DNA of 64,000 nucleotides from Candidatus Onstottus arcticum (GCA_038040485.1 JBBPIE010000001.1:152014-216013); one strand, 5' to 3'; positions 35,344-64,000 are shown, counted from the first letter of the stretch. Notes: generated by a model from the letters alone, not told the origin. Program-made: numbers and translations.

Positions 35344-35390
35344 TGTCCGCCTGAGCGCCGTGCCAATAGAATACCCTCGCGATCAAAGCC

Positions 35391-42925: not shown

Positions 42926-43007
42926 CAGGAAGTCAATCTGGTGTGTTCTCGAAGGCGCAAACTAGTATACTGTACGCGCGCAACGTGGGTGCGTCGGAGA
43001 CGCTCGA

Positions 43008-43868: not shown

Positions 43869-43877
43869 AGCATTGAG

Positions 43878-45788
43878 TCATTTGACTGCGTCGCTGCCTT
43901 TTGGCAAGCCCGCGCGCAGCTTCCTTAAGTAGGCATTCAAACCCGCATACAACGAAGCCGCAACGCGCTCGCGGAATTCAACTGTTTGCAGCAGAGCTTC
44001 GTCTTTCGGGTTCGAGAGGAAGGAAACCTCAGCGAGCACGCTTGGCATCGACGCGCCGAGCAGCACGACGAACGGCGCGTGCTTTACGCCGCGATTGGCA
44101 GCAGTTCGAGGTGATTGAGCGCCAATGCCTCGCACCAATCCTGATTGAATGTACCGCGCAAGCTCACGGGACTCGGCTACGCGATTGCCCATGGTCGTAA
44201 CGCTGGCGACTACCGGTTGAGCACGATCGGCGGTCTTCGCGCTCGCAAGAGTCGCGTTCTCGCGAGCCGCTGTCTGCAAGTCCTCGGCTGGAACGCGGTC
44301 CGGGCTGACAAAATAGGTTTCCACTCCAGAAGCAATGCGCGATTGGCTCGCGTTGGCGTGGATCGATATGAACAGATCTGCGCGCCGCGAGTTCGCAATC
44401 GCAGTGCGCTCCTCGAGCGCGACAAATCGATCCGCGTCCCGCGTGAGAATCACTTCGACCTCCGGGTAACTGTGTTTGATGTAACCCCTCAGCCTTCGTG
44501 CTACGTCCAGCACGAGGTCCTTCTCGCGCATGCCGCCTGAGCTGATTGTACCGGTGTCGTGTCCGCCGTGGCCGGGGTCGATCACGATACGATGGATCGA
44601 AGCTACGGCGGCTTTGGCGTCGATTTTCGCGCCCAGCGCCTTTGCGAGGACGTCTGCCGGGTTAGCAGCGGGCGGCGCGCTGCGAGCTGTCGCGAGCGTG
44701 ACTATCGGCTCCTGGATCTCGGGTAATGAAATCAGCGGGTTCCGATCGGCTGCGCTCAGTTTGCCCGCGCGAGCCTGCTCGTCTGAAGAGTGCGCGTTCG
44801 CAGATCGCGACTCGCTCGATTCCGATGCGTGAGCAATCCCGCCCGCTCGAAGATCGATCACGATGCGTTCCGGATCCGAAAGACGAAAGGCCGAGTAGTC
44901 GAACGCCGTGCTCAGGTCGATGTCGATCTGAATCCCCGTTGCTGTGCCCTGCGAGACTCTAACTCGTCTCAACAATCCCGACTCGCCGACTATGAATCTG
45001 CGGCCGTACAGCGAGCGCGCGACCGTCGATTCATCAAGCTCAAAGCTCACTCGATTCGCCTCGCGGCGCGCGATGAACTTCGATGCATCCGACAGGTCGA
45101 GCACGACCCGCGCATAGTCCGGTCCGCTGAAGCTCCGGACGTTGGTGAGTCGCGAAGGCCCAATCGTTGCGGCGTCTCCCGCGCCGACCCCCGGAGCTAC
45201 AACAACGTCGACCGGTCTGCGTGCGAGTTCGGCTTCGAATCGCGCGACAACCGCCCGCGCTTCCCGGCCCAAAACAGAGGCGGGGAAATGGGCCGCCAGC
45301 TCTCGATAAGCGCCAGCGGCTCCATCCAGGTCCTGAAGGTTCTGTTCGTAGATTTGCGCTATGCTGATCAACGCGTCGCCGACAAACGCGCTGTTCGAGT
45401 GCTCATCGATCACGTTGCGATAGGTTTCAATCGACTGCTGATACAAAGCGGAATCGCCGGACACATCGGCCATTTCGCGCAAGAGTTCCGCGCGACGGGC
45501 AAGCGACTCTGCGGAAAAGTACATCTCCGTGTTGAGCCTTATCACTTGCCCATAGGCGTCGAGCACGCGGCGATAGTCGGCGGCGCTTCGCTGCTCGGGC
45601 GGCCGGTTATGCAGGTCGCTGCTTAGCGTGCCGGCATACTGGAAGAGTTCTTCGGCAAGAGATCGCGAGATGTGGGAAGGAGAACTCTCAGGATCGGCGG
45701 CGTTCAACACGGGGCGGACCGCCAGACAGAAAACCAGCGCGAAGACAACGCCGTTGAATATCACCTTGTCGCGCACCTGTCGTCGCAT
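43878..45788 (-). CDS. N-acetylmuramoyl-L-alanine amidase (Amidase_3/AmiC-like) with N-terminal TPR-like and AMIN-like regions
   Basis: C-terminal HRIVIDPGHGGHDTGTIS...DLFISIHANAS is the Amidase_3 catalytic core. Signal peptide. Confidence 0.85.
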   Translation of the reverse strand: MRRQVRDKVIFNGVVFALVFCLAVRPVLNAADPESSPSHISRSLAEELFQYAGTLSSDLHNRPPEQRSAADYRRVLDAYGQVIRLNTEMYFSAESLARRAELLREMADVSGDSALYQQSIETYRNVIDEHSNSAFVGDALISIAQIYEQNLQDLDGAAGAYRELAAHFPASVLGREARAVVARFEAELARRPVDVVVAPGVGAGDAATIGPSRLTNVRSFSGPDYARVVLDLSDASKFIARREANRVSFELDESTVARSLYGRRFIVGESGLLRRVRVSQGTATGIQIDIDLSTAFDYSAFRLSDPERIVIDLRAGGIAHASESSESRSANAHSSDEQARAGKLSAADRNPLISLPEIQEPIVTLATARSAPPAANPADVLAKALGAKIDAKAAVASIHRIVIDPGHGGHDTGTISSGGMREKDLVLDVARRLRGYIKHSYPEVEVILTRDADRFVALEERTAIANSRRADLFISIHANASQSRIASGVETYFVSPDRVPAEDLQTAARENATLASAKTADRAQPVVASVTTMGNRVAESRELARYIQSGLVRGIGAQSPRTAANRGVKHAPFVVLLGASMPSVLAEVSFLSNPKDEALLQTVEFRERVAASLYAGLNAYLRKLRAGLPKGSDAVK

Positions 45789-47862: not shown

Positions 47863-47938
47863 GCCAGCGTAGCTCAGTTGGTAGAGCATCGGTTTCGTAA
47901 ACCGGAGGTCAAGGGTTCGAGTCCCTTCGCTGGCTCCA
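47863..47938 (+). tRNA. tRNA-Thr (anticodon CGU)
   Basis: GCCAGCGTAGCTCAGTTGGTAGAGCATCGGTTTCGTAAACCGGAGGTCAAGGGTTCGAGTCCCTTCGCTGGCTCCA. Acceptor stem 7 bp, GTTCGAGTC T-loop, anticodon loop TTCGTAA, encoded CCA. Confidence 0.85.
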
Positions 47939-48327: not shown

Positions 48328-48891
48328 TTAATCTATATCGGAAGCGTCGAGGATCGCCTCGGCATCAATGGTTATTTCTACGGTGTCGCCTACGACGATG
48401 CCGCCTTTGTCCATCTTGTCGTTCCAACTTACCCCGAAGTCGTGCCGATTGATTGTGGTCTTGGCGACGAAGCCGGCGCGTGTCTTGGGTCCTTTGTCGA
48501 CCCCGTCTTCCCACCAGGGCGTTTGCCATTGCCCGAGGTAGTGAACCTCCAGCGTAACAGGCCGTGCAACTCCGCGAATCGTAAGATTACCGGTCACTTG
48601 GTAGTCTACCTCGCCTATAACAATTACCTGATTGCCGTAGAAACTGATCTCGGGAAAACTCTCTACGTCGAGAAAGTCCGCGCTGCGGAGGTGCGCGTCC
48701 CGCGCTGGCTCGCCGGTCCAGATCTTGCGCGCATCGATGACGACTTCGAAGGAAGAGCCGGCAGGGCTTTTCGGATCGAAGTTGAGCGTGCCGTGCACGT
48801 CTTTAAAATGTCCACGCACATGAGTGACCATCATGTGCCGAGCGCAGAATTCGGCGGCGGTATGTCCCGGTTCAAAAGTCCATTTAGCCAT
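48328..48891 (-). CDS. YceI-like domain protein
   Basis: MAKWTFEPGHTAAEFCARHMMVTHVRGHF...GNLTIRGV fits the YceI family. Confidence 0.7.
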   Translation of the reverse strand: MAKWTFEPGHTAAEFCARHMMVTHVRGHFKDVHGTLNFDPKSPAGSSFEVVIDARKIWTGEPARDAHLRSADFLDVESFPEISFYGNQVIVIGEVDYQVTGNLTIRGVARPVTLEVHYLGQWQTPWWEDGVDKGPKTRAGFVAKTTINRHDFGVSWNDKMDKGGIVVGDTVEITIDAEAILDASDID

Positions 48892-48922: not shown

Positions 48923-49510
48923 TCAATTCCGCAAAGTCTTCAAGGCGCCGCCCCAGGCGATGACCTGGTCAAGCATGGCGTTGACAGACTTCTCTTGCTG
49001 GGGAGCCGGCTTGAAGACGCTAAAGTTCTCGAAGTCTGTGAAGAGTGAAAGCCCGACCTGCGCGCGCACATCGGCGACCTGCAACTCGCCCATCACCAGA
49101 CGCAGATTCTCAACCGCGCGAGTCCCCGATGCGCCGCCGTAGCCAACGAACCCGGCCGCTTTGTTGGTCCACTCATTGTAGAGATAATCAATCGCATTCT
49201 TGAGCGCGCCCGAAGTCCCGTGGTTGTACTCGGGCGTCACGAAGACGTAGGCGTCGAAGGACCCGATCTTGGCGGACCAATCTTTCGTGTGCTGATGGGA
49301 GTACTGGCCCATCATCGGCGACATCGGCTCGTCGAGGAAAGGCAGGTTGTAGTCTTTGATGTCCACGAGTTCAAACTCGGCGTCGCTACGCTTTTGCGCG
49401 ATTTCGTAAACCCATTTGGCCACGGTCTCCGCCTTGCGACCGGGCCGCGTGCTTCCGATGATGATGGCAATCCTTATCATGAATTCGTCCCGTGCTGTTT
49501 CCGTTACCAA
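48923..49510 (-). CDS. NAD(P)H-dependent FMN reductase
   Basis: IRIAIIIGSTRPGRKAETVAKWVYE...YVFVTPEYNHGTSGALKNAIDYLYNEW (flavodoxin-like fold). Confidence 0.8.
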   Translation of the reverse strand: MVTETARDEFMIRIAIIIGSTRPGRKAETVAKWVYEIAQKRSDAEFELVDIKDYNLPFLDEPMSPMMGQYSHQHTKDWSAKIGSFDAYVFVTPEYNHGTSGALKNAIDYLYNEWTNKAAGFVGYGGASGTRAVENLRLVMGELQVADVRAQVGLSLFTDFENFSVFKPAPQQEKSVNAMLDQVIAWGGALKTLRN

Positions 49511-49520
49511 AACTCTACCT

Positions 49521-49880
49521 TTAACGCACCCCGGCTAAAAGATTCATCGTTCGCTGCCGTCGTCCCCACGCGACGAGGCCAGTGACAACTAAAAGAATAA
49601 TCGCCATCAATGGGCTTCCTCCGACGATGAACAGGTGCGTCACAACAGCCCCGGCCATCACCCCGGCGAGTAAGAGTGCGCCCAATCCGCTCGTGCGCGG
49701 GATCAAAAGCAGAATCGCGCCCGCGACTTCCAGCGCCCCGGTCAGGTAGCGGAACCACTGCCCGACTCCGATGGTCTCGAACAGCCCGACCATTTGCTCA
49801 TTTCCCGACAGTTTCGAGAACCCCGCCATCAGGAACATCCCGGCGGCGGCGATCTGCAAAATCCACAGTACAACGTTCAT
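49521..49880 (-). CDS. DoxX family membrane protein
   Basis: MNVVLWILQIAAAGMFLMAGFSKL...TGALEVAGAILLLI. Start at internal ATG 49880; the listed ORF extends to 49943. Confidence 0.75.
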   Translation of the reverse strand: MNVVLWILQIAAAGMFLMAGFSKLSGNEQMVGLFETIGVGQWFRYLTGALEVAGAILLLIPRTSGLGALLLAGVMAGAVVTHLFIVGGSPLMAIILLVVTGLVAWGRRQRTMNLLAGVR

Positions 49881-50085
49881 GATCTTCCCGGTCGAACTCG
49901 AACCCGACCGCGTGCCTTCTATTGTTGCCTCTTCCTCTGCCATACCTTAACCACTCCTTCCATCTTCGATCATTCAAGAGTTAGTCGCGCCCATCCTGCC
50001 CTGACGGTAATCCTCAATCGCCTGACGGATTTCCGCCTGCGTGTTCATCACAAACGGTCCGGAGCGCGCGGCGTCGCTGCCACCC

Positions 50086-50349
50086 TTAATCTTTTTCTCT
50101 TTCCATCCATTCGCAAATATATGCAGCGCAGTTCTCAAGCTCCACGCCATCCGCTTCGCAACGCACGAAAAAGCACACTACGTCGCGATCGACCACGCCA
50201 ACGTCTTTCAAATCTAAAACGATGTCGCGGTAGTCCGTTTGGAGTTCAAAGAGTCTCCTCAACTCGGCTATCGCCTGTGTTTCGATTCGGCCACTTAGGA
50301 GGAATACTGTGAATCTCCCTCGCACTGTACTCTCAATCCTAAAAGTCAT
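50086..50349 (-). CDS. Small STAS-domain protein (anti-sigma-factor-antagonist-like)
   Basis: [22 protein letters not shown]...[16 protein letters not shown] is the SpoIIAA-like pattern. 87 aa. Confidence 0.55.
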
Positions 50350-50700
50350 TGATCAGCCACAATGCAGTCGCGGCTGTGCCGCATTGCATTCCTTCCATCC
50401 GAGCATCGATCACGAGTATCGCAAACCGCGTACCCAATTGGATTTCACTGAAAACAGGGCTCGAACATGAAATTGGAGTGACAGAATGTTAGGAAGTGCC
50501 AGAATTCTGGGAGTTCAACGAGGGGACTTATCGGATGGTGTGTTTCTTCGTATTGAGTTGTTTGATTTTCAAATCTAGCGTCGACCGCGGAATTCCAAGC
50601 TTGGCAGCCGCACCAGTTGGCCCGGCAACTTTTCCGTTGCTTTCCGTAAGAGCCGCGTCGATGAGTTCTTTTCATAGTTCTGGAGGGTCTTTGTGAGAGA
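50342..50700 (-). pseudogene. Direct-repeat copy A: degenerate duplicate of the 3' end (Fis-type HTH) of a sigma-54 activator gene plus about 170 bp of downstream sequence
   Basis: About 88% identical to 62160-62520. A 1-bp deletion relative to copy B breaks the reading frame (…GPTGAAAKLGIPRSTLDLKIKQLN… is recoverable). Confidence 0.8.
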
Positions 50701-51236
50701 ACCTTGAAAATATGTCGCCGGTAGGCACGAGCGCGACTCCCTGCCAGCACATCCGCGTCAAGAGGTCTCTCCCCTCGGCGTCGATGAACGTCACATTCGC
50801 TAAGTTCACCCTGACGGCGCTGCCCGGTCTCTCCGCAACGGCGGTCTGCCAGCATTCCTCCAGTACTATCACCCAAGGGTCCTACCAGTTTTCCCGCGAC
50901 GGTGAAATTCGTCGCTTCAGTCGCGTACTGTGTGTCGATCCCAGAATGCAAGCTATTGCTGATAGTCGGCTTCCCGCGCGTCGATTTCCTTCTTCGGAAA
51001 CGGCGAGAACCTCTGGACGAACTTCTTAAAGCGGCTAAAACGATCCGCGTATTTTATTCCCACCACTCTATTGAATATCGCCGGGACGTTCGTGGAAAGG
51101 TACATCGGGCTCGTAGTTGGATTCTAGAAGCCCTGCCTGCCTGCCGGATGGATCGTATCGATCCTTGGAGTGTTAGTCTTACTGGCGCTATATCACCTGC
51201 TTTTTGTCCGCCGGCGTGCGTAGCATGTCTTTTGAC

Positions 51237-52193
51237 TTACTCTAGTGGCGCATCCATCGGATTCACAACGAAAAGCTGTTCTCTGTGCGGAGGCTCAGCG
51301 GCAGGCTTACCCATTTTCGCTGCCGCGTTCTCTATCTCGGCATTAACCTTGCCACCGACGAGAATGGCTGCGCCCGTCAGGTAGAACCACAACATCAGGA
51401 TGATCACTGCTCCCAGGGATCCATAGGTCACGCTGTATCTGTCGAAGTAATACAGATAGATGCGAAAGCAGAAGGTCACCAGCAGCCAAAGGACGGCGCC
51501 TACAGCCGAGCCTGGTGTGATCCAATGCCACTTCCGATGATGGCGGTCCGGCGCAAAGTAGTAGATCAGAGCGAAGGCAAGTAGCAGGAAGGCGATCACG
51601 ATTGGCCACTGTAGGATGTGCGAAGCCAGCCTGAAGGCTTCACCGAAACCGAAACGCTTAGACACTGCTTTACCGATCTCACCGCCGTAGAGTACCAGTG
51701 CGAGGGCCGAGATAATCAGCACGGCGAGCGTGATAGTAAGACCGACCGCGGAGAGACGCATCCTCCAAAACGAGCGCGTTTCCTTCACCCCATACGCGGC
51801 GTTCAGAGTCTCGGTGATAGCTCCCGTTCCATAAGAAGCGAACCACAGGGCCGCCAGTAATCCAAATGAAAGCTTGCTGCCGTCAGCGTCTTTGTGGATC
51901 TCGTCAATGATAGTGTAGATGAGTTGTGAACCCGAGCGAGGCACGACACGTCCGAGGTAGATGAAGAGGTTCTTGCGCAGTTCTGTTCCCGCCTCTGCGA
52001 GATAGCCGAGCATTGCCGTAAGAAAGATGAGCAACGGAAACAGTGCGAGCAGGAAGTAGTAGGAGAGAGCCGCCGCGCGGGTGAAGAGGTCGCCCTCATA
52101 AATCTCCAGCCAGATGCGCCGACCCAACTCTCGTCGTGTTAATCCGCCGAGCTTCCAAATGGATGCATCAACACTCTGTTCTTCCGTATGCAT
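51237..52193 (-). CDS. YihY/BrkB family membrane protein
   Basis: RAAALSYYFLLALFPLLIFLTAMLGY and 6 TM segments typical of the YihY/virulence factor BrkB family. Confidence 0.8.
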   Translation of the reverse strand: MHTEEQSVDASIWKLGGLTRRELGRRIWLEIYEGDLFTRAAALSYYFLLALFPLLIFLTAMLGYLAEAGTELRKNLFIYLGRVVPRSGSQLIYTIIDEIHKDADGSKLSFGLLAALWFASYGTGAITETLNAAYGVKETRSFWRMRLSAVGLTITLAVLIISALALVLYGGEIGKAVSKRFGFGEAFRLASHILQWPIVIAFLLLAFALIYYFAPDRHHRKWHWITPGSAVGAVLWLLVTFCFRIYLYYFDRYSVTYGSLGAVIILMLWFYLTGAAILVGGKVNAEIENAAAKMGKPAAEPPHREQLFVVNPMDAPLE

Positions 52194-52410
52194 TCATTTC
52201 GAACCTAACATCGAGAGAATTCCTTCACAAGACGCGGCAATAGGGTAGCAGGCAACGCGGTAGTTTATTTGAACCATCTGTTTTGAGAGCGGGAATTTCA
52301 AACTGAACCGCTCCCCGCAACGCAACGTCATAGTTTGCCTTTAACTCCGAGCGTGGGTATGCTGTTTGTCTTGGCGCTTGTGACAATCCATCCGAAGGCA
52401 AGCGGCCTAT

Positions 52411-52790
52411 GCCGAGGAAGATTCTTGTCGTTGACGATAACCTCGACACACGCGAACTAACTCACCTGACCACTGAAGGATTTACAGTAGTGTCGCAGCC
52501 GACGGGCGTGAAGGTTTGTATATGGCCGGCGCTGAGACTCCCGATCTGATAATCACCGACATCAGCATGCCTGAACGTGACGGCATCGACATGATCAGAC
52601 AAATAAGAGAGCAGCCGGATAACAACAACATGCCGATATTGGTCTTGACCGCTTTCGGCAGCGAAGTGGTAGATCAATCAATTGCAGTTGGAGCCACCCT
52701 GCTCTGAAGAAACCCGTACACCTTGATGTGCTTCTAGCTGAAGTGAGAGAATTATTAGACCTCGGAAAGCATGGTAATTAAAGTGCAAAC
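52411..52790 (+). pseudogene. CheY-like receiver-domain gene disrupted by two frameshifts
   Basis: MPRKILVVDDNLDTRELTHLTTEGFTVVS is in frame 1. ...LYMAGAETPDLIITDISMPERDGIDMIRQIRE...PILVLTAFG is in frame 2. ...KKPVHLDVLLAEVRELLD is in frame 3. Confidence 0.7.
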
Positions 52791-53065
52791 GGCACGGGCA
52801 GGCGAGCCGATCTATCGGTTAGTGCGATATAAAGTAGTGCTGTTCGTAGCAAGTTAAAATGTCCGCTTTTCATAGCAAGTTATATGTCCGGTCTGCTGGC
52901 CCTTCCATAACGATTGCTTCTTTATAAGGTTATCCGAAAAGTTTTTGCTCAAGAAATCCGAGCAGCTTTTACACAAATTGAAATAGCCACAGAGACGCCG
53001 CCCGGCGGCGTCTCTGTGGCTTCTTGTCTGTTCTGATTAGACGATCGGCTCGTAAACGGCCATCA

Positions 53066-53560
53066 TTATCTGAACAACTCCAGCGCGACTTGGGAGAGCG
53101 CCGCCACAATAGGCTCTGCAAAACGAGTGTTGCGGCTGCGCCCGCCGCCGAGACCCGAGGCGAGAAGTACGCCTATGCCTATTCCCGCGCCGAACGCGAT
53201 AAGGGTAAGCTTGCCGGGATTCTCCTTGCCGTAGCTCATCGTCTGATCGTAGGTGTTGCCAACGACTTCGCTCGTCTTGTCGTAGGCCTGGCTTACAGCC
53301 TTCACCGTCTGATCGTAGGCAGTCTGTACTCCGCTGCCAACATCCGAAACGATTTCGCGCGCACGTTGAGGCGCAGTGCCCGCGAACCCTGGTGTCCCAG
53401 ATGGTTGCGCTGTTGCGGTAGACGGCTTGTTAGCAGCATCCGGATCCTGCTGAACGTGCCTCTGTGGCTGTGAGGTGGATTGCGGGGTTGTGTTAGACGG
53501 GTTATTAGGACTACCACCGGTCGTTTTGCCCTGCTCTGTTACATTCTTGTTCGATTCCAT
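53066..53560 (-). CDS. Membrane-anchored stress protein (DUF883/YqjD/ElaB-like)
   Basis: Hydrophilic N-terminus, central helical region, C-terminal TM KLTLIAFGAGIGIGVLLASGL. Confidence 0.55.
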   Translation of the reverse strand: MESNKNVTEQGKTTGGSPNNPSNTTPQSTSQPQRHVQQDPDAANKPSTATAQPSGTPGFAGTAPQRAREIVSDVGSGVQTAYDQTVKAVSQAYDKTSEVVGNTYDQTMSYGKENPGKLTLIAFGAGIGIGVLLASGLGGGRSRNTRFAEPIVAALSQVALELFR

Positions 53561-53588
53561 TTACTTTCCTCCTTGTTAAATTGAAATG

Positions 53589-54143
53589 TCAGTCGCGTTT
53601 ACTACCTACCTGCGTAGAGAAGCGAGAAGGTTGAACATTCGTATCGGAATTGTTCGGCGTTCTGCTCTGAGTCCGTGTCTGACTTGGCCGCGATATGTCG
53701 CCGGCTATCGCGCCACTTATCCGTTTCCTCAGAAAATCTACCGCTGCCTTCGCGATCATCGCGGTAGCAGCCGCCTTCACAGTGCGGCCCGACAACATCT
53801 TCTTCTGTATCACTCCTGCCATGACCCCGCCAACGCGGTCAGTCATGTCCTCAGTGAGTTCGGCCATTGCATCCAGAATTCGCTCTTGCGGCGTGGGCTT
53901 TCGCTTGAAGATTCCTGCTATTAGAAACCCTGCTCCGGCAGCCAACCCCAACGCGCCCACAGGATACTCAGCGACGTACTCATGCCAGTCGAACGTCTCC
54001 TGTATGCGCTCGCCGAGCTTGTCTACCGTCTCGGAGATAGACTCTCGCTTGGCGGCTATATCTTGACGAATCGCGACTGCGCTTCGATCAGGCGTCTCTT
54101 CCTGCACGCGCCGTTGAGTCGCTACGTTAGTTCTTTCAGCCAT
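53589..54143 (-). CDS. Hypothetical membrane-anchored protein (stress cluster)
   Basis: 184 aa. Amphipathic N-terminus, TM VGALGLAAGAGFLIAGIF. Overlaps the next gene by 22 nt. Confidence 0.5.
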   Translation of the reverse strand: MAERTNVATQRRVQEETPDRSAVAIRQDIAAKRESISETVDKLGERIQETFDWHEYVAEYPVGALGLAAGAGFLIAGIFKRKPTPQERILDAMAELTEDMTDRVGGVMAGVIQKKMLSGRTVKAAATAMIAKAAVDFLRKRISGAIAGDISRPSQTRTQSRTPNNSDTNVQPSRFSTQVGSKRD

Positions 54144-54541
54144 TCTTTATCCTCCTCAAGGGTCTCGATGGTCTGGCTTGGCGTAAGGCTGATGCGCTTG
54201 ATTTGGCCGAGCCCTACGGAGGCGGTTACTCCTCCCACGATAGCAAGCGTTCCGCCTATGATAAGGGCCGAGTAACCAGGGCCAACATAATTGGCTAGCC
54301 CTATGATTGCGGCCGCCGTTAGCGCCAGTATTGCTACAAGTCCGATAAGCGATCCGGTTGCGACGACGAATATACCGGAGCGAAATACGCTGACTTTCTC
54401 GCTCATCTCCTGCTTGGCGAGCTGGATCTCATCGCGGACCAGAGCAGCGGAGTTGTTAGCCAATTGACCCAGCAACTCGCCAAACGATTCGCGCGGCAAG
54501 CTTGCTTCGGGTCGCTGATCAAAGTCCCTTCGCACCTGCAT
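54122..54541 (-). CDS. Phage holin family protein (superfamily-III holin-X-like)
   Basis: LVRDEIQLAKQEMSEKV followed by two TM helices (IFVVATGSLIGLVAILALTAAAII; LIIGGTLAIVGGV). Confidence 0.6.
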   Translation of the reverse strand: MQVRRDFDQRPEASLPRESFGELLGQLANNSAALVRDEIQLAKQEMSEKVSVFRSGIFVVATGSLIGLVAILALTAAAIIGLANYVGPGYSALIIGGTLAIVGGVTASVGLGQIKRISLTPSQTIETLEEDKEWLKELT

Positions 54542-54548
54542 ACGGGCT

Positions 54549-54902
54549 TTACCTCCTCCTGAATAGAAAACCGAGCAAAAGCCCGGCAGCTCCCGCTACG
54601 AGCAGGCTGCGGCCAGGATTGTTCCGTACCTGTTTTTGAAGGTCCGCCTTAACCTTTTGCTGGTCCACGTCGCGAACGTATTCCGCTGCGTCATCCAACC
54701 ATCCGGCAGCCTGACCGGCGTAGCCGGCAACTGCGTTTTCTTGATTCTGCCCTGCCTTCTGCTGAATTGCTCCGGCAACGGCGTGCAACTTGTCGGCAAC
54801 AGTGTCCTTGATTGTGTCGAGTGTGGAAACACCGCTCGTGGATGGTGATCCGTAACTAGAAACCTCTTTCCCTGCGGTCTCACTGCGGTTCATTGGATCC
54901 AT
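54549..54902 (-). CDS. DUF883 (ElaB/YqjD-like) protein
   Basis: C-terminus QKQVRNNPGRSLLVAGAAGLLLGFLFRRR is the family-typical terminus. Confidence 0.7.
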   Translation of the reverse strand: MDPMNRSETAGKEVSSYGSPSTSGVSTLDTIKDTVADKLHAVAGAIQQKAGQNQENAVAGYAGQAAGWLDDAAEYVRDVDQQKVKADLQKQVRNNPGRSLLVAGAAGLLLGFLFRRR

Positions 54903-55065
54903 ATTGCGCTCCTTGCTCAGTTTGTTTCTGTCTGCCGTTCTTCGATGAGGTATAGCATCTCGCGAGCGCCTGCCTACGCAGGCGAGGTCTTCTGCGCCTG
55001 ATTCAGAATCACGTCCCTTACTTCCTCATCTGCCTCAGTCACAGTAAAGCGGTTGCGTTTCGCTT

Positions 55066-55213
55066 AGACGGCCCTTCGGCGGCCGCTTAACAGGTTGAAG
55101 ACCAATACTATTGCCGCCACAACAAGCAACAGGTGGATTAATCCACCGCCGACGCCGCCGATCATCCCCAGCAGCCACAGGACCAGTAGAATAACTAAGA
55201 TTGTCCAAAGCAT
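55066..55213 (-). CDS. lmo0937-family small membrane protein (49 aa)
   Basis: MLWTILVILLVLWLLGMIGGVGGGLIHLLLVVAAIVLVFNLLSGRRRAV. Strong SD (cctggaggtgaaccATG). Not in the supplied ORF track in this frame. Confidence 0.7.
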
Positions 55214-55591
55214 GGTTCACCTCCAGGTGTTAGCACGTTCTCCGTGTCGAGTGCACCAAGGCTCTATCCCGACTCCGGTTTACTCTCGAATGCTACGCGT
55301 GTTCGAGATCAGTTTCTGTGCAGTATGGGACATTCTCGAAAATAGTTGGCCGGGATTAGGTGGACTAGCCAGCAGGCACAGGCAAGGTGTAGCCAGATAA
55401 GCTGCGCCCATGATCACTCAATCAACTAGTCGGGCTAAAGAGGCGGTTAGCTTCCAGTCTTGAAAGCTCTTACCGTGATTGTTTACATTATTGGCCCGAA
55501 CGGTAATTAACAGTCACTACCTCCTAAGACCCCAGAACGGAGGCAAAGCACGATTCAAGATTATCCAGAGACCGATCTATTAAAAAAGCAG

Positions 55592-56229
55592 ATGCGCGAG
55601 TCGTTGGAACGCGAGGCGAAGAACTCGCGTGCCATCAAGATTCCGAAACACGAAAACGTCACACTATTGGAGAGCAAGACGAGATGGTCTACTTCATTGA
55701 GAGCGGGGAGGTAAAGCTGCTGATGCTCTCTTCTGAAGGCAGAGAATGTCTACTTGCTATCCACGCTCCAGGAGATGTCTTTGGCGAGCTGTGCCTGTCG
55801 GGGATAGCGGGCCGGCTGGAAACTGCGACCGCAATGGAAGACACGCGATTGAAGAAGGTTCCGTGTGCAAAGTTCCTTGAACGTTTAGCCACCGACTCGC
55901 TGCTTGAAGGTTTCGTCAAGTATCTGGCTGTGCGCGTGGGAGACCAACAGGAAGTCATCGCTAATCTGGTGACGGTTGATAGCGAACAACGCTTAGGGAA
56001 GACCTTGTTGCACCTGGCCAGACAATTGGGCAAGAAAGGCCCTCGCATTACACAGATCGAGCTGAGGATTTCACACGAAGAACTGTCGAACATGATCGGC
56101 ACAACGCGGCCACGGATCAGCGTATTCATGCAGCGATTCCGGAACCTCGACCTCATTGAATACAGCACAGAGCACCATCTAATTGTTAAGGAAATTAAGC
56201 TCACCGCTTACCTGGCATCGATTGCCTAG
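55592..56229 (+). pseudogene. Crp/Fnr family transcriptional regulator, paralog 1, apparent +/-1 frameshift near 55670-55690
   Basis: N-terminal MRESLEREAKNSRAIKIPKHENV is in one frame and aligns to paralog 2 (QMQGSLFNETKNSSPIKIGKHDHV). The rest, from MVYFIESGEVKL, is in another frame. cNMP-binding region plus C-terminal HTH (HEELSNMIGTTRPRISVFMQRF). Confidence 0.7.
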
Positions 56230-56497
56230 CCGGCTGCGCACGCCCTGTCCCATCGAATCTAAATTTTTACACTTGTCTAGTATTGAACAGCATTGAATCC
56301 GCGATGCGAGTCTTGTGGCCGCAGTTTACTAATAGGTCTACCGCGTCGGCAACGATGACATTCATTCACGACGACCCCGTAGACCGATTGGTAAGGTGTT
56401 CAAGGCCTAACTGCTTCGGCAGGTACAAAGAAAGCTTAAACGTTCGATTAGAAGGGGGCCTGTATAAAGTAATAGGCTCGAAATTGCGAGGTGGTAA

Positions 56498-56908
56498 ATG
56501 ACAGCAATGGCAACCACGTCAGAAGCAAGAAAACGGATTCTCTGGGTCGATGACCATGAGGACACCAGGAATATGATGAGTGTCCTGCTTGACCAGTACG
56601 GCTACGAAGCGGAAATCGCCGCTTCTCTGTCCGCTGCGTTGGAAAGTGCCAGGTCCGGCGGGCTCGCCTTGTGCATACTCGATCATTGGATAACCGAGGG
56701 CAGCAACGGAATTGAGCTATGTCAGCAGATTCGCGCCTTTGACTCAGACACGCCGATAATGTTCTATTCAGGCGCGGGCTATCAAGCTGATATTAAGAAG
56801 GGACTGGATGCCGGCGCGCAGGCGTACCTTGTCAAACCGGACTTTGACCATCTGGAGCAAACGATTGACCGGCTTATTGACGAAGCTGACTCCACCACTC
56901 ATCACTAG
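56498..56908 (+). CDS. Stand-alone response-regulator receiver domain protein (CheY-like)
   Basis: RILWVDDHEDTRNMM...LCILDHWITEGSNGIELCQQIR...AYLVKPDF includes the Asp pocket and the phospho-acceptor D. Confidence 0.8.
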   Translation: MTAMATTSEARKRILWVDDHEDTRNMMSVLLDQYGYEAEIAASLSAALESARSGGLALCILDHWITEGSNGIELCQQIRAFDSDTPIMFYSGAGYQADIKKGLDAGAQAYLVKPDFDHLEQTIDRLIDEADSTTHH

Positions 56909-57190
56909 TCGTTTAGGAAGTAACTCTCAGAAACGAACCTGCAAAACCTGCCCTTCACCTTATTCCTTCGGCAACGGGGAATCTGAGCTAGAGATGAGGG
57001 AGAAACCGATATCCGTTCGCGTTGACGGGCTAGAAGGGACGAGTTCTTTTAGTTCAGGGTATTTTCAACTCCGTGGATGGCAAAGTGGACAATTGTTCAA
57101 TATCGAACAGCGCCGCTTTTATCGGAAGCGCATACTTAGGTAGTCGATAAGCATTGAAAGATAAATCAGCGGAAATGGAAGAGAAGAAGT

Positions 57191-57871
57191 ATGATTCAAG
57201 AAGCTTCTCAGTCGGATCAATTCAAAGAACAGATGCAAGGGTCGTTGTTCAACGAAACCAAGAACTCGAGCCCTATCAAGATCGGCAAGCACGATCATGT
57301 CTACACGCCTGGAGATGAACGCGAGACTGTATACTTCATCGAAAAAGGACAGATCAAGCTGGTCATGGCCTCGTCTGAAGGTAAAGAGTGCATGCTGGCC
57401 ATCCACGGCCCGGGAGATGTTTTCGGCGAGCTGTGCCTGTCTGGGCTTGGGGGCCGGTTGGAAACAGCGACCGCGATGGAAGATTCTTTCCTGAAAGAGA
57501 TCCCTTGTACCAAGTTTCTCGATCGCCTAGCTCAAGACTCTCTCCTCGAAGGCTTCATCAAGTATCTGGCTGTGCGGGTTGCCGACCAACAGGCTGTCAT
57601 CGCCAATCTGGTAACGGTTGATAGCGAGCAGCGCCTGGGGACGACCTTATTGCAAATCGCCAGAAAGTTCGGAAAGAAAGACCCGCGGAGCATACGCATC
57701 GAGGTCAAGATTTCTCATGAAGAATTGGGGACAATGGTGGGCACGACTCGACCGCGGGTCAGCGTATTCATGCAGCGATTTCGGAACCTCGACCTCATTG
57801 AGTACAACACAGAGCACCATCTGATTATCAAGGAAAAAAAGCTCACTGCTTACCTAACATCGATCCTCTAG
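57191..57871 (+). CDS. Crp/Fnr family transcriptional regulator, paralog 2 (intact)
   Basis: cNMP-binding domain VYFIEKGQIKLVMASSEGKECMLAIHGPGDVFGELCL plus HTH. About 80% identical to paralog 1. Confidence 0.85.
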   Translation: MIQEASQSDQFKEQMQGSLFNETKNSSPIKIGKHDHVYTPGDERETVYFIEKGQIKLVMASSEGKECMLAIHGPGDVFGELCLSGLGGRLETATAMEDSFLKEIPCTKFLDRLAQDSLLEGFIKYLAVRVADQQAVIANLVTVDSEQRLGTTLLQIARKFGKKDPRSIRIEVKISHEELGTMVGTTRPRVSVFMQRFRNLDLIEYNTEHHLIIKEKKLTAYLTSIL

Positions 57872-58008
57872 GCCCCCCGTGCCGCCCGCCAAGCCGAGGC
57901 CGCCGCGCCGAAAATGGCCGAAGCCCTCACGGCGCAGCACGCGCTCGATGATCCGACTGAAAGGCCGCCGGCATACAAGAACCAGAGTGTTTGAATTCTT
58001 CTGAGGCA

Positions 58009-58371
58009 CTATGATCGAACGTCGACCCGCCATACGTCGAGCGGGACCGACATCACATCGCTGTCTCGGCCCACCGTGGCGGCGGAGAGATCGGCCGCCA
58101 CGTTGAACAGGCCATCGAGCCTGCCGAACTCCTTGACGGTGAAGTCGACGAGCTCTTTGTACGACGCCTCGTCGGTGATATCGAACGATCGAGCGATAGC
58201 CCTACCGCCCAACGTTCGGATCTCGTCGACGACGGACCGAGCGGCCGCCTCGTTCAGGTCTGCCGCCACGACGGCCGTGCCCTCCTCAGCGAGGCGGACG
58301 GCGGTTGCCGCGCCAATGTTGCCCGGCGCCGCGCCCGCAATGATGGCAACCTTGTCCTTAAGTCCTCTCAT
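58009..58371 (-). pseudogene. Truncated short-chain dehydrogenase (N-terminal about 120 aa only)
   Basis: VAIIAGAAPGNIGAATAVRLAEEG...DITDEAS...NVAA. The ORF stops before the catalytic YxxxK region. Confidence 0.6.
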
Positions 58372-58383
58372 TGCTCACTCCTC

Positions 58384-59226
58384 TTATAGACGGCCTTCCT
58401 TCTGTAACCGCGCCTGTATGTTGGCGATGTGCCGCTCTCCGGCTTTAAGCGTGGCCGGACCTGTGTGCACGGAATAGTTTCCGAGTGCGAGTTCATACGG
58501 GTGGCTTGCCGCCGATCCAAGAACGAATTCGGTGTCGGCCTCGGCATAGAAACCGATCGCTTCGTTCGACGGCTCGAAGACCGCGAGTTCACCGGCCTGC
58601 ACGTGCTCGGGAACAAGAAGGCTTCCCGTACTAAGCGCGACCCAGCCGACGGTGTGATCGGAAGGTGGCTGGTAGCTCCAAGACTCGCCGGCCTTGAGGT
58701 GCACAAACAGGTAGGTCATTGAGGACGGTGCCGGAAGCTGACTCGACACCCCGCTGTATTTGCCAAGCAATACGATGGCGGGCCCATGCCGCTGAATGGC
58801 GGACGGTGCCAGATAGATGCTTTCGACCGATCCGAGTTCTTGTTCGGGAGGCAGGGCGATCCAGAGCTGGAATCCGCGTGCTCGCCCGGACCCGTTAGGC
58901 CCACCGCCGTGCCACGCGCCGTGACCGGCCCTGAACCATTCGACGCCACCCTCCCCCAAAATCCCGGTTGCCCCGGATGTGTCTTCGTATCGCACGCTGC
59001 CTTCGATCATGTAGGACAGTGTCGCGATGCCCGAGTGCGGGTGCAGCGCCATGCCGGAAAACGACGTTCCCTCAGTATCGAAGAGGTCGACGAAAACGAA
59101 CGGCTTGAGAACCTGGCCAAGATCAGACGGACTCATCAGGCGCGTGATGGCCCCGTGACGCAGGCCTCGGGTCCGATGCACGATCTGACGCCGGCTCTCG
59201 CTAATCGCGGCAGTGGATTTACTCAT
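58384..59226 (-). CDS. Pirin family protein (cupin)
   Basis: HPHSGIATLSYMIEG...VEWFRAGHGAWHGG fits the bicupin pirin His-rich motifs. Confidence 0.75.
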   Translation of the reverse strand: MSKSTAAISESRRQIVHRTRGLRHGAITRLMSPSDLGQVLKPFVFVDLFDTEGTSFSGMALHPHSGIATLSYMIEGSVRYEDTSGATGILGEGGVEWFRAGHGAWHGGGPNGSGRARGFQLWIALPPEQELGSVESIYLAPSAIQRHGPAIVLLGKYSGVSSQLPAPSSMTYLFVHLKAGESWSYQPPSDHTVGWVALSTGSLLVPEHVQAGELAVFEPSNEAIGFYAEADTEFVLGSAASHPYELALGNYSVHTGPATLKAGERHIANIQARLQKEGRL

Positions 59227-59448
59227 TGACGAAACTCCTTGTTTACGGCCACGTGGAAGGCCCGCGAAGATGACACAAGCCCTCCACAGTAGCGGTCTTC
59301 GGCCAAGCCTCCTGAGTTTGGGCGGATTAAACGATAAGTTATTTGGCCGCCGCTTGCGCCTGCTCAGCCGCTCGCGCGTCAGCCGCTTGGGTTCGAGCGC
59401 ACGCTGGTAAGCCCTTGAGAGGCAGATCGGAGACCGCGCCCTGTGGCT

Positions 59449-60213
59449 CTACCAAGCGGTCGCGCCGCCGTCGACCGGGTAGTTGGCGCCTGTGATGTAA
59501 GACGCCCGGTCAGAAGCGATGAAGGCCGCGAGCTCCGCGACCTCCTCGGGTTGACCGAAGCGCTTGAGAAGCGTCTTTCTGGTTATCGCGTCCCGGGCCG
59601 CCTGGTTGTCGCCGAGGTCGCGGTCGGCGGCCGGGGTCAGGAAAGGCCCGGGACTGATCGTCACCGCACGGATCCCATGGCGCGCGCCTTCAAGCGCTAA
59701 TTGTCTCGTCATGGCGATGACGCCGCCTTTCGCTGTGGCGTGCCCGACCATCGGGGGGGTCTCTTGGGCGATCATGCCTGACACGGACGCGACGTTTATG
59801 ATTACACCGCCACCGCGCTGGACCAGGTGCGGCCATGCGAACTTCGACACGAAGAAGGGAATGTCGAGGTCGCCAGTTATGGTCGCCCGCCAGTCATCGA
59901 TAGAGAAATCGGGCATCGGACCGAAGTATTGTATGGCCGCGTTGTTGTAGACCACGTCGAGCCCGCCGTAGGCGGCGACGGCATCCTCAACCATCTTCCG
60001 CGCCTGTTCGGGGTCGGTGAGATCGATCGGCGCGATGCCAGTCATCTCACCGCCGGCGCGACGTATGAGCTCGACCGTCTCGTTGTTGGCATCAGCCTTG
60101 ATGTCGCACCCGACAACCTTTGCGCCTTCTCGCGCAAAGGTCTGCGCCGCGACGCGGCCCAGACCTCCTCCGGTGCCGGTGATCAGCACGACCTTCTTGT
60201 CAAGTATTCCCAT
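59449..60213 (-). CDS. SDR family oxidoreductase
   Basis: VVLITGTGGGLG, NNAA, VASVSG, Y...K. Confidence 0.85.
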   Translation of the reverse strand: MGILDKKVVLITGTGGGLGRVAAQTFAREGAKVVGCDIKADANNETVELIRRAGGEMTGIAPIDLTDPEQARKMVEDAVAAYGGLDVVYNNAAIQYFGPMPDFSIDDWRATITGDLDIPFFVSKFAWPHLVQRGGGVIINVASVSGMIAQETPPMVGHATAKGGVIAMTRQLALEGARHGIRAVTISPGPFLTPAADRDLGDNQAARDAITRKTLLKRFGQPEEVAELAAFIASDRASYITGANYPVDGGATAW

Positions 60214-60358
60214 AGCTTCCTCCTGGTCTCAACTGTCTCAGGCCAATCCACCCTCAGCGCGTGGACTAGCCGGTCGATTTGAAATTCGGTTGTTCGACTC
60301 TCGCAACGATGAAATTGCTGCCCCATGACCATTAAAGAAACGAGGACCCGATTGGTCG

Positions 60359-61108
60359 TCAGATCTGCGCTTGTCCACCATCAACGAAAACCTCGCTCCC
60401 GGTCATGAAGCTGCTCTCGTCGCTCGCCAGGAATAGGGCCACAGCGGCCGTTTCCTCCGGGCGACCGAGGCGGCCGAGCGGGGTTTGTGCGACCAGGCCA
60501 GCGACCATCGCCTCCTGCTTCCCCGTCTTCGCCAAGCCATCAAGAAGGCCGGGCGTAGCGGTAGCGCCTGGAGAGAGCACGTTCACTCGAACTCCCGTGG
60601 CCTTCAGATCCAGAGCCCAGCTCCTGGCAAAATTTCGGATGGCAGCCTTCGTCGCACTGTAAACGCTGAATGCCGGCGTCCCGGTCGAACCCGTAGTCGA
60701 CCCACTGAGAATGATCGATCCACCGGCCTGCATCAGTGGCAACGCCTTCTGAACAGTAAACAAGGTCCCTTTGACGTTCACGCCGAACGTCAGATCGAAC
60801 TGAGCCTCAGTGATCTCGCCCAAGGGCTCACTTCCACCAAGACCCGCATTGGCAAACAGGACGTCCAAACTACCCACCTCGGCCCGGATCGTTGCAAAGA
60901 GCCGGTCCAGGTCGTCGAGATTTGCGACATCTCCCTGGACCGCCATGGCGGTGCTGCCGATTGCCTCTACAGCCTTGTCCAGTTCGTCCTGGCGACGTCC
61001 CGTAATGAAAACGCGCGCACCCTCCGCCACGAATCGCCTGGCTGTTGCCAAGCCGATGCCGCTGCTTCCCCCGGTGATCAGAGCTGTCTTGCCTTGAAGT
61101 GTGCCCAT
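60359..61108 (-). CDS. SDR family oxidoreductase
   Basis: TALITGGSSGIG...NAGL...SGSTTG...YSATKAA. Start at ATG 61108 with AGGAGG SD. Confidence 0.85.
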   Translation of the reverse strand: MGTLQGKTALITGGSSGIGLATARRFVAEGARVFITGRRQDELDKAVEAIGSTAMAVQGDVANLDDLDRLFATIRAEVGSLDVLFANAGLGGSEPLGEITEAQFDLTFGVNVKGTLFTVQKALPLMQAGGSIILSGSTTGSTGTPAFSVYSATKAAIRNFARSWALDLKATGVRVNVLSPGATATPGLLDGLAKTGKQEAMVAGLVAQTPLGRLGRPEETAAVALFLASDESSFMTGSEVFVDGGQAQI

Positions 61109-61251
61109 GCGAGCCTCCTGATTCAAATTTCCCCTTTTATTTGTAACGACCATCAAAGACACTCGGGAATATCACGACCTCGTCGTCCAGACTTGCCTGG
61201 GTCGAATGTGATTCCTCTCAAGTGGATATGTTGGAGATAGTGCCATCAAAC

Positions 61252-62148
61252 TTAGGCCGGGAAATTCGCTCGAGCCCACGTCGAGAATTTGGTCGGTTGC
61301 CGTCCTGCTATTTTGTTTGCGAGCGCAATTTCGTCGTGTGAATCCGAACCCAGGTAGGTATGAGCTTGGAAGTAACTAAACCCCTCCGCCACCGCGGCGC
61401 CCCCAGGGAAGAGAGCAGCGAAAACTTCCTTTGGCACTTGTTTGAATGAGAACTTGTGACCCTGTCGATTTAGCGTGTCCACGACTTCGTTGAAGCTCAT
61501 GAAATCACCGACCAGTGGCAGATACTCGCCATTGCCTGCCTGATCCGGATGTGCGAATGCTCCAGCAACGATGTTGCCGAGTTCGGTAATGTCGCCCATG
61601 TGGATGCAACGCACCTTTGGATCAAGAGGGAGAGCCCAGCCCAAGGATCCGTCTAATTGCTTTTGCGGAGCTAGAACGGCCACAAGATTCTGGTAGAAGA
61701 AAGGCGCGATGACGAACGTATGATTCGCAAACCCGGCTTCCTGGACTATCCGATCAATCTTGGCCTTGCCGGTAAAATGGGGAACGTCGAACTTGCCGCC
61801 GCTGATCGCTTCTACATCAGGCAGCGTTGACCAGATAAAGTGTTTGACACCAGCATCCTTGGCAGCGCGTACCGCCGCGGTTGCCTGCTTGCGCTCGTCG
61901 GTGCCTTTTTCCCAACCAGTGGTGACCAGAAAGACGCCATGCGCCCCTTCAAATGCAGCTTTGAGGGTTTCCGGGCGGTTTAAATCAGCTTCGACGACTT
62001 CGTCGGCGAGGTCGCGATGCTTGTCTGGATTGCGGCTCAGCGCGCGTACCTTAAATTGGTCGCTGGCTTGCAGGGCACGTACCACTGCGCCTCCCTGCTG
62101 CCCCGTTGCGCCGATCACGGCGATCAGTTTCTTATTGTCGGATAACAT
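61252..62148 (-). CDS. NmrA-like NAD(P)-binding protein
   Basis: IAVIGATGQQGGAVVRALQASDQFKVRALSRNPDK. Confidence 0.8.
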   Translation of the reverse strand: MLSDNKKLIAVIGATGQQGGAVVRALQASDQFKVRALSRNPDKHRDLADEVVEADLNRPETLKAAFEGAHGVFLVTTGWEKGTDERKQATAAVRAAKDAGVKHFIWSTLPDVEAISGGKFDVPHFTGKAKIDRIVQEAGFANHTFVIAPFFYQNLVAVLAPQKQLDGSLGWALPLDPKVRCIHMGDITELGNIVAGAFAHPDQAGNGEYLPLVGDFMSFNEVVDTLNRQGHKFSFKQVPKEVFAALFPGGAAVAEGFSYFQAHTYLGSDSHDEIALANKIAGRQPTKFSTWARANFPA

Positions 62149-62159
62149 GTCTAGTCCCT

Positions 62160-62520
62160 GTCTATACGATTACGATCAGCCGCATCGCCGTCGCGGCTGT
62201 GCCGCCACTGCATTCCTTCCACCGATGATGAGTAGTGCAAACCAAGTGCCCAATTGGATTTCACTGAAAACAGGGCTCGAAAAAGAAATTGGAATGACAG
62301 AATGTTAGGAAGTGCCAGAATTCTGGGAGTTCAACGAGAGGACTTATCGGAGGGTGTGTTTCGTTATATTGAGTTGTTTGATTTTCAAATCCAGCGTCGA
62401 CCGGGGAATTCCGAGTTTGGCAGCCGCACCATTTGGCCCGGCAACTTTTCCGTTGCTTTCCGCAAGAGCCGTCTCGATGAGCTCCTTCTCATAGTTCTGA
62501 AGGTTCTGTTTGAGAAGACC
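62160..62520. repeat. Direct-repeat copy B (3' end of the sigma-54 activator gene plus downstream intergenic sequence)
   Basis: About 88% identical to 50342-50700 in the same orientation. Confidence 0.8.
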
Positions 62521-63988
62521 TGATGAATCCAGGCGAGGTGCGTTCTGACTTGAAAGCCAGGCCTCATCGATCCATAAGGTATCCCCGGTGCAGAGGATCA
62601 CAGATCGCTCAATAATATTTTGTAACTCACGAATATTGCCGGGCCAATGATAGGACTGACATAACTTGAGCGTATTTTTGTCGATCTTGCTGAATTGCTT
62701 CCTGGCTTTGTCCGCATAGCGCTTCACGAAGTACTCGACCAGCATTGGAATGTCTTCTTTCCGTTGCCGGAGAGGCGGCACATCAATCGGGAAAACATTC
62801 AGCCGGTAGAAGAGGTCGGCGCGAAATGTTCCCGAAGCAATGGGCTGCCGGCAAATCGCTGTTGGTGGCGGCAATTATTCGAACATCAGTGGGAATGACG
62901 CGGCTGCCCCCCACTCGTTCAAATTGGCGCTCCTGGATCACTCGAAGGAGTGCGATCTGAGTTTCCGCGGGAAGCTCGCCGATCTCATCGAGGAAGATCG
63001 TGCCGGAGTGCGCCAGCTCAAACCGGCCTTGTCGGCGCTGCATGGCGCCGGTAAATGCCCCCTTCTCGTGGCCAAACAATTCTGAGGCGATAAGCGAAGA
63101 AGGAATCGCGGCGCAATTCACGCTAATAAAAGCCTGGCCGGCACGCTGCGAACCCTTATGTATGGCGCGCGCGATCAGTTCCTTCCCGGTACCTGTTTCG
63201 CCCGTGATCAGCACCGTAGAGTCGGTGGGAGCGACTTTCACGATGCTCGAAAGGACGGTTTTCAAGGCGGGCGAGGAGCCCACGATTTCTTCAAACATGA
63301 AGGCCTGATCGATTTGCTCTCGCAACGCGAAGTTCTCTTGCAGCGTTCTTTCCTCCGCATGTTTGCGATCGTCGATGTCGGTACCGGTCGCATACCAGCG
63401 GATGACCTTGCCGTGTTCGTCCAGCAGCGGGTTGTATTGGATCAGGAACCAACGATAGTGACCATCTCTCCGGCGCACTCGTCGTTCGTACTCGAATGGG
63501 ACCCCTCGCGAGATGGCCGCATTGCGTTCGTCGCGCAATCTCTCGGTATCCTCCGGATGAAAGACCTCACCAAAGTTTTCTGCCTTCACTTCTTCTTTCG
63601 TCAGGCCGGTGTACTCCAGTACAGCCTGATTCGCGTTTAGAAATGCTCCGTCGGCTCCGATAACGACGATGAGCTGCGGTATTGCATCGATGATTGTTCG
63701 AAGTTCAGCTTCGGATTTGGCTATTTCGGCGAAAGCCCTCTCTAATTCATCCTCAGCGCGCTTGCGCTCATCGATATCCGTCACCAAGTTATACCAGCGG
63801 ACAATGCGACCTTCGGCATCACGCTGCGGACGACCTCGTACCTGGAACCAACGGTACACGCCATCGGCTCGACGGCTACGATTCTCAACATCAAGTGGCT
63901 CCCCAGTTTCGATCGAGCGACGATAGGCGTCGATCATTCGAGCAAGGTCATCCGGATGGACAGCGTCGCTGGTGGACCAATTCTTCAT
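62344..63988 (-). pseudogene. Sigma-54-dependent Fis-family transcriptional activator with PAS domains; frameshift within 62783-62874; 5' end beyond window
   Basis: AAA+ sigma-54 interaction domain ([19 protein letters not shown]...GAFTGA...[15 protein letters not shown]) in one frame. The downstream half ([24 protein letters not shown]...HTH AAKLGIPRSTLDLKIKQL) continues in another frame. Confidence 0.75.
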
Positions 63989-64000
63989 TTCCTCAATCGT

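Follow-up and report, generated by a model that had tools for sequence, protein, structure and literature searches.

Several described systems can be compared with DNA that lies inserted between direct repeats. Integrative elements such as e14 and phage 21, which occupy icd of E. coli, and islands in tRNA genes create a second copy of the 3' end of the gene they enter. Homology-facilitated illegitimate recombination has been described in Acinetobacter and in pneumococcus during the uptake of foreign DNA. Linear DNA, presumably by bridging sister chromosomes, gives rise to duplication-insertion (Dup-In) structures under laboratory conditions, and recombination between the two copies removes them again (Nasvall et al., NAR 2017, PMC5389514). 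Here we describe a 64,000-nucleotide stretch of DNA (the window; JBBPIE010000001.1:152014-216013) from an Acidobacteriota metagenome-assembled genome (MAG; protein MEK6299248.1), in which two direct copies of a segment of about 350 nt enclose a large block of genes. The repeat is a duplicated regulatory cassette, composed of the 3' end of the gene of a sigma-54 enhancer-binding protein (EBP) and a predicted sigma-54 promoter region. The cassette is the new element; the type of rearrangement is known and regularly results from illegitimate or homologous recombination.

The locus resembles the laboratory Dup-In structures in that an insert lies between direct copies of a normally single-copy segment, needs no recombinase of its own, and could be resolved by homologous recombination with restoration of the original order. 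It is unlike them in that they were engineered with lambda Red and designed homologies, carry identical copies and are unstable, whereas the case in the window is natural and old, has copies that are 11% diverged, a composite insert and a presumed mode of joining.

The repeat and its predicted sigma-54 promoter

The repeat pair is recovered by a repeat finder, by MAFFT alignment and by BLAST of the window against itself. In the last, positions 50351-50698 match 62174-62515 in direct orientation with 88.0% identity over 350 nt (E 3.4e-113), and in the alignment the limits reach 50706 and 62523. In accordance, the original prediction of same-orientation direct repeats of about 88% identity is confirmed by all three methods, self-comparison of the window included. 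Between the copies (A and B; Table 1) there are about 40 substitutions, together with one indel of 8 nt and two of 1 nt; their longest identical runs are 44, 33, 30 and 25 nt. The only other sizeable repeat in the window is a pair of crp paralogues (55574-56222 and 57215-57864, 76%).

Copy B is, as first proposed, the genuine 3' end of the activator gene, encoding the Fis-type HTH, together with the downstream intergenic region. Copy A was taken for a frameshifted relic of the same end, and it is one: a 1-nt deletion lies near 50670, and the HTH relic has no usable open reading frame (ORF), with a stop standing ahead of the remaining reading frame.

To place the repeat in an evolutionary context, we compare the window with related loci (numbered L001 upward). 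The EBP C-terminus, used as query against species-representative genomes, gave 80 loci. In L001, L003, L005-L010 and L012-L017, a homologue of STAS87, an 87-residue STAS-like protein, is encoded 150-210 nt after EBP on the same strand. L097 and L101, reached through STAS87 homologues, have the same order of EBP, intergenic region and STAS87, which brings the related loci with one copy between the two genes to 16. Therefore, the ancestral arrangement is EBP, one intergenic region and STAS87. In the window, EBP is parted from STAS87 by 11,467 bp (50707-62173) and by an additional copy of the 350-nt junction segment. Each copy remains contiguous with its original outer flank: copy A and STAS87 align without a break to L001, L097 and L101 (92.4% over 642 nt in L101), and EBP and copy B align to L101 with 94.0% identity over 1148 nt. 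The two inner junctions, between STAS pseudogene and HTH relic and between promoter region and nmrA, are present in no relative examined. The proposal that the repeats are the scar of a segmental duplication or insertion is thus supported by synteny. No relative has the gene order of the window, and none shows that order with one repeat copy.

The non-coding half of the repeat, on which the original prediction was silent, can be attributed to a conserved sigma-54 promoter region. A TGG-N9/10-TTGC block (GG-N10-GC) is kept in 18 aligned orthologous intergenic regions, distant ones included, while the flanks have diverged. The element is also retained in extra copies of the region found in relatives (L004b, L004c, L101rev and the left copies of L098 and L102). 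The pattern GGYAC-N5-TTGC is matched three times in the 64 kb, where chance would give 0.76 matches; the repeats account for two of the matches. A strict pattern, TGGYAY-N5-YTGCW, missed both repeats because a G precedes the GG; a relaxed core pattern recovered them. The third match to GGYAC-N5-TTGC is at 24547-24560 on the minus strand (GGCACGGATATTGC).

About 70 nt upstream of the -24 element, both copies carry the palindrome CCAGAATTCTGG. In other lineages its counterpart has a different sequence yet stays dyad-symmetric; in the intergenic alignment the dyad co-varies between lineages. The EBP gene lies immediately upstream of the promoter region. The palindrome is a candidate activator-binding site, although it may have another role. 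Scans for terminators and sigma-70 promoters around copy A gave nothing above chance, indicating that the dyad is no obvious intrinsic terminator, and an Rfam scan of 49.8-64 kb returned no credible RNA family. Identity between the copies is 93.5% from the stop codon to the -12 element, 87.7% in the coding part and 83.9%, with 9 further gapped positions, in the 5' untranslated region (Fisher p=0.07); extra conservation of the promoter core between the copies is thus suggestive only.

The promoter of copy B now fronts nmrA, the first of five co-oriented genes, and that of copy A still fronts STAS87. Since both copies retain the -24/-12 element and the dyad, activator input would reach two predicted transcription units, nmrA-SDR-SDR-pirin from copy B and STAS87-doxX-FMN reductase-yceI from copy A. 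We infer that both promoters depend on sigma-54 and EBP and that the two gene sets are co-regulated. The case would show how the target set of a regulator grows in an abundant uncultured soil lineage, a promoter and the tail of the regulator gene being copied along with an insertion: newly arrived oxidoreductase genes would presumably be controlled by the same sigma-54 activator, and the original target would retain a promoter copy for itself.

The locus agrees with regulon growth by duplication of sigma-54 promoters and upstream activating sequences in that the activator adjoins its target promoter, the -24/-12 element and the upstream dyad are conserved, and extra copies front other genes. 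These are nmrA in the window, an SDR gene and STAS87-nmrA in L004, and FMN reductase in L101, all read from sequence. A literature search found no description of the EBP-STAS module. It constitutes a conserved, undescribed unit of a PAS-sigma-54 activator, a sigma-54 promoter, a small STAS protein and then variable redox or detoxification genes, and could guide work on stress regulation in Acidobacteriota. The STAS87 family numbers more than 2000 members in the databases.

The composite insert and duplications in related loci

The block between the copies is composite, a point missed by the original prediction. It combines an oxidoreductase cluster with a segment, Z, that is foreign to the locus, and its GC content ranges from 50 to 62%. 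The cluster is 92% identical to that of L102 over 2.2 kb. In L098, L099 and L102, the homologous cluster separates a 5' from a 3' part of the promoter region. A 26-nt imperfect repeat, GTGATCGATGCTCGGATGGAAGGAAT, flanks it there, and the left junction in these three loci differs from that in the window. Segment Z includes five small membrane or stress-type genes and is next to EBP in no EBP-linked relative locus. A metagenome scan with YihY found relatives of about 70% only, none with the block, and the neighbourhood crp-REC-REC-yihY' is common only to two short metagenome contigs, L094 and L095.

The gene content first listed for the interval (YihY, a receiver pseudogene, crp-REC-crp, a truncated SDR, pirin, SDRs and NmrA) is borne out by Pfam, with some corrections. 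The receiver pseudogene is present, but on the plus strand and with two frameshifts. In the cluster described as DUF883/holin-like/lmo0937, DUF3618, Holin-X and a weak DUF883_C match are found; the lmo0937 label of the 61-aa ORF has no Pfam support. Disrupted genes, put at four or more, number five: the HTH relic, the STAS pseudogene, the REC pseudogene, crp1 and the truncated SDR. Sequencing error was considered as a source of the frameshifts in the block and rejected: a start codon is substituted, deletions occur outside homopolymers, and long ORFs are intact elsewhere in the window.

The STAS pseudogene fused to copy A, which the first list lacked, has no homologue near EBP in any EBP-linked locus (tblastn), with the single exception of a 58% homologue 8 kb downstream in L097. 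In this close relative, the region 15223-18928, 5-8 kb downstream of STAS87, encodes a second sigma-54 activator, of GAF type, along with a FecR-like protein and a STAS protein of 115 aa that is 58% identical to the pseudogene of the window.

One gene of the cluster stands out by its similarity to other species. The segment 59428-60254, comprising the gene of a 254-aa SDR with about 40 nt upstream and about 20 nt downstream, is 97.7% identical to L001 (10989-11814) and 95.7% identical to L098; the neighbouring genes are 85-92% identical, and the copy in L001 is placed elsewhere, after STAS87. This looks like a recent single-gene exchange between species. The edges of the 97.7%-identical segment have no flanking repeats and no conserved structured repeats. 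An integron-like cassette array was rejected, given the lack of an integrase and of structured repeats at these edges.

Promoter-region duplications recur in relatives. L004 has three copies (8027-8255, 10470-10645 and 13749-13952), two of which flank a 3.1-kb insert. Behind one of the insert-flanking copies, an SDR gene (13940-14737) begins with the first STAS87 codons (MPLRIEAA...) fused in frame. The third copy is inverted upstream of EBP and fronts STAS87-nmrA-yceI, a unit by which EBP appears to be 5'-truncated. In L101, an inverted extra copy (2258-2438) lies upstream of EBP, before FMN reductase and SnoaL-like genes. The duplications in L004, in L101 and in L098/L099/L102 are independent of that in the window, a point that had also gone unnoticed. 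The region is an island of redox genes that surrounds a single activator and is prone to rearrangement. A further insertion in L098 (2050-4815) is of another kind: a restriction-modification module on the opposite strand, made up of two genes for DNA methyltransferases and an ORF of 299 aa, is inserted cleanly, with no duplication, about 14 nt after the EBP stop codon, parting EBP from the promoter region.

It is conceivable, though doubtful, that the promoter region is itself a recurrent, recombinase-free capture site. Redox or other genes would have been inserted there independently in at least three lineages, flanked by duplications of 26, about 160 and 350 nt, and additional copies would have come to lie before other oxidoreductase genes. 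Replication forks could stall at a stably bound complex of sigma-54 holoenzyme and activator and switch template. If so, the region would be a natural platform for adding genes to the regulon of one activator.

Origin of the duplication

We regard duplication-insertion via illegitimate or homology-assisted recombination as the best explanation of the locus, with a probability of roughly 0.55. In such an event, DNA ends would have joined the locus, without a dedicated recombinase and for example by bridging two sister chromosomes, at two points taken in 'reverse' order, one just before the STAS87 start codon and the other within the C-terminal linker of EBP. The interval between the points would be left on both sides of the insert, and the ancestral segment (the last ~60 codons of EBP and the STAS87 sigma-54 promoter region) would end up in two copies. 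The homology of copy B extends to the base preceding the position of the STAS87 start codon and then continues as GGCTGATCG-TA-ATCGTATAGAC..ATG, the ATG being that of nmrA, whose leader is homologous to the nmrA leader of L098. This junction contains an ATCG microhomology and a 6-nt tandem ATCGTA, which point to illegitimate joining. At the second novel junction, the EBP C-terminal linker and the 3' end of the STAS pseudogene are fused. The insert consists of a locus-native cluster and the foreign segment Z, by which an SDR gene is truncated, and was therefore probably shaped by more than one event.

Homology-facilitated illegitimate recombination offers a related model. One end could have been anchored by homology in EBP and the promoter region, and the other joined at the ATCG microhomology next to nmrA. 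It differs from the present case in that recipient DNA is normally replaced or deleted and the anchor is not duplicated, and no donor was found here.

How old the duplication is can be roughly estimated from the copies. Over the 350-nt segment, copies A and B are 88.8% identical, A and L101 91.6%, and B and L101 93.1%. At synonymous sites, which are few, A and B are the closest pair (pS 0.18). Their pN/pS, 0.55, is the highest of all pairs (0.11-0.36 for the others), as expected if one copy evolves neutrally. A switch of nearest neighbour along copy A and STAS87, sought as a sign of a recombination crossover, was not found. By these few sites, the duplication would date from about the time of the split from the nearest sequenced species, or else the copies would come from lineages about that far apart. 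The divergence of about 11% and the decay of the relic indicate that the structure has persisted for long. The suggestion that the block is prone to deletion or amplification is therefore only weakly supported: identical runs of up to 44 nt allow recombination, but divergence and relic decay speak for persistence.

Five points weigh against duplication-insertion and its proposed consequences. First, both copies are nearer to L101 than to each other, which fits a very old duplication or different origins and is awkward for a recent duplication in situ. Second, relatives carry a homologous cluster at the same locus with different junctions, making a single-event history unlikely. Third, no same-species donor or pre-insertion allele was found; the nearest database STAS87 is 92% identical (protein) and the nearest EBP 3' region 94% (DNA, L101). 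Fourth, the joining mechanism is inferred from the architecture. Fifth, EBP carries a +1 frameshift within the AAA+ domain, CCC at 62842-62844 where five orthologues have CC, and its Pfam Sigma54_activat match is spread over two ORFs. The extra C may be a genuine inactivation of the regulator or a base-calling error; if real, both promoters may currently be silent.

A multi-step history is the main alternative, though in our judgement less likely. Here, an ancestor resembling L102 would have had the oxidoreductase cluster between a 5' and a 3' part of the promoter region. Either a large stretch would then have been duplicated in tandem or the EBP-promoter module would have been duplicated, Z lying at the join. 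Recombination between short repeats would later have removed the second copy of the cluster or most of a second EBP, so that the HTH relic and a full promoter remained before STAS87. The SDR is intact in L102 exactly where that of the window is truncated, the junction equivalent to window position 50413/50414 is common to L098, L099 and L102, and recombination between the 26-nt flanking repeats would regenerate an intact promoter region. The contiguity of copy A and STAS87, and a second EBP-like fragment after STAS87 in L015, are also consistent with it. However, at least three events are required, the tandem intermediate is present in no relative examined, and the left junction of the window, from the full promoter region to the nmrA leader, is not derivable by deletion from that of L098 and L102.

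It is improbable that the block is the remnant of a site-specific integrative element that entered at the 3' end of EBP carrying its own copy of that end, the repeats being attL and attR and the integrase lost. As in e14, phage 21 and tRNA islands, the direct repeats comprise a gene 3' end, here with downstream sequence; the gene-adjacent copy keeps the reading frame, and a displaced non-functional relic lies at the far end. The heterogeneous composition of the block (50-62% GC) and a divergence between A and B similar to that of different lineages would also fit. Unlike those elements, the window has no integrase, excisionase, transposase or conjugation gene in or beside the block. Among ORFs of at least 60 aa at 50.3-62.5 kb, none has a recombinase-family match, all being assigned or spurious overlaps of assigned genes, and the unassigned gaps are shorter than 350 nt. 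No identical core stands out as an att site beyond the conserved promoter, and relatives carry part of the insert natively at this locus. In addition, the duplications vary in length and end points, with intervals of 350 nt in the window, about 160 nt in L004 and 26 nt in L098, L099 and L102, and are thus not the outcome of one att site.

Assembly artefact, as a chimeric MAG contig or misjoined repeat, is very improbable: the source is a MAG and the contig of L002 breaks inside this region, but 12% divergence with indels between the copies speaks against collapse or k-mer bridging, the junctions are unique to each copy, the relic has evolved in the manner of a pseudogene, and similar duplicated architectures occur in the independent assemblies L004, L098, L101 and L102.

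Insertion sequences, composite transposons and miniature inverted-repeat transposable elements were rejected as well, because there is no transposase and there are no terminal inverted repeats, the ends vary between copies and genomes, and copies occur solely around EBP. A tRNA-Thr(CGT) gene at 47863-47938 on the plus strand, 2.4 kb from copy A, was considered as an island attachment site. It was rejected because the intervening genes are conserved neighbours in relatives; the tRNA gene is absent from the relative loci examined, and no integrase lies beside it in the window.

Features of the locus and of the remaining window

The features of the locus are collected in Table 1.

Table 1 Features of the repeat pair, the inserted block and the flanking genes, in window coordinates
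Feature	Position	Strand	Remarks
YceI	48328-48891	-	Ancestral downstream gene; Pfam; synteny in L001, L004, L011, L101
FMN reductase	48923-49510	-	Ancestral downstream gene; Pfam; synteny in L001, L004, L011, L101
DoxX	49521-49943	-	Ancestral downstream gene; Pfam; synteny in L001, L004, L011, L101
STAS87 (intact 87-aa STAS-like gene)	50086-50349	-	Directly downstream of copy A; Pfam; synteny in L001, L004, L011, L101
Repeat copy A	50351-50706	-	HTH relic 50528-50706; intergenic region 50351-50527
Predicted -24/-12 element, copy A	50421-50434	-	GGTAC-GCGGT-TTGC; GGTACGCGGTTTGC; ~70 nt upstream of STAS87 ATG
Palindrome, copy A	50499-50510	-	CCAGAATTCTGG; ~70 nt upstream of -24
Segment Z (7.3 kb, foreign to locus)	50707-58026	.	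Truncates SDR gene; contains pseudogenes
STAS-like pseudogene	50707-50951	-	Fused to copy A, upstream of relic in gene orientation; one frameshift; weak STAS_2 match
YihY/BrkB	51237-52193	-	Pfam
REC pseudogene	52409-52781	+	Two frameshifts (single-base deletions outside homopolymers)
164-aa ORF	53066-53560	-	Segment Z
DUF3618	53589-54143	-	Pfam
Holin-X	54122-54541	-	Pfam
DUF883_C-like	54549-54902	-	Weak Pfam match
61-aa ORF	55035-55220	-	Segment Z
crp1 pseudogene	55550-56229	+	ATG->ACG plus 1-nt deletion
REC	56498-56908	+	Segment Z
crp2	57191-57871	+	Segment Z
Oxidoreductase cluster (4.1 kb)	58027-62173	-	Pfam; homologous clusters at same locus in L098, L099, L102
Truncated SDR	58009-58371 (ORF)	-	Homology to intact gene ends at 58027; first ~340 nt only; intact in L102
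Pirin	58384-59226	-	Pfam
SDR	59449-60213	-	Pfam
SDR	60359-61162	-	Pfam
nmrA	61252-62148	-	Pfam
Repeat copy B	62174-62523	-	Last ~60 EBP codons 62344-62523 (stop 62344-62346); 170 nt of downstream intergenic region
Predicted -24/-12 element, copy B	62237-62250	-	GGCAC-TTGGT-TTGC; GGCACTTGGTTTGC; ~90 nt upstream of nmrA ATG
Palindrome, copy B	62315-62326	-	CCAGAATTCTGG; ~70 nt upstream of -24
EBP (PAS / sigma-54 AAA+ / HTH_8)	62344-64000, past window end	-	Pfam; alignment of 5 orthologues

Outside the block, two same-strand ORF pairs overlap by 126-165 nt (5403-9605 with 9440-10408, and 35370-36185 with 36059-36676) and could be further frameshifted genes. GC content falls to 47-50% at 42500-44000, against ~57-62% on either side. 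A perfect 33-nt inverted repeat pair is located at 35096-35128 and 35283-35315, and a 30-34-nt element occurs three times in both orientations with 94-97% identity (37201-37234, 41578-41614 and 41659-41692); these sequences may be repetitive extragenic palindromic (REP)-like or terminator elements.

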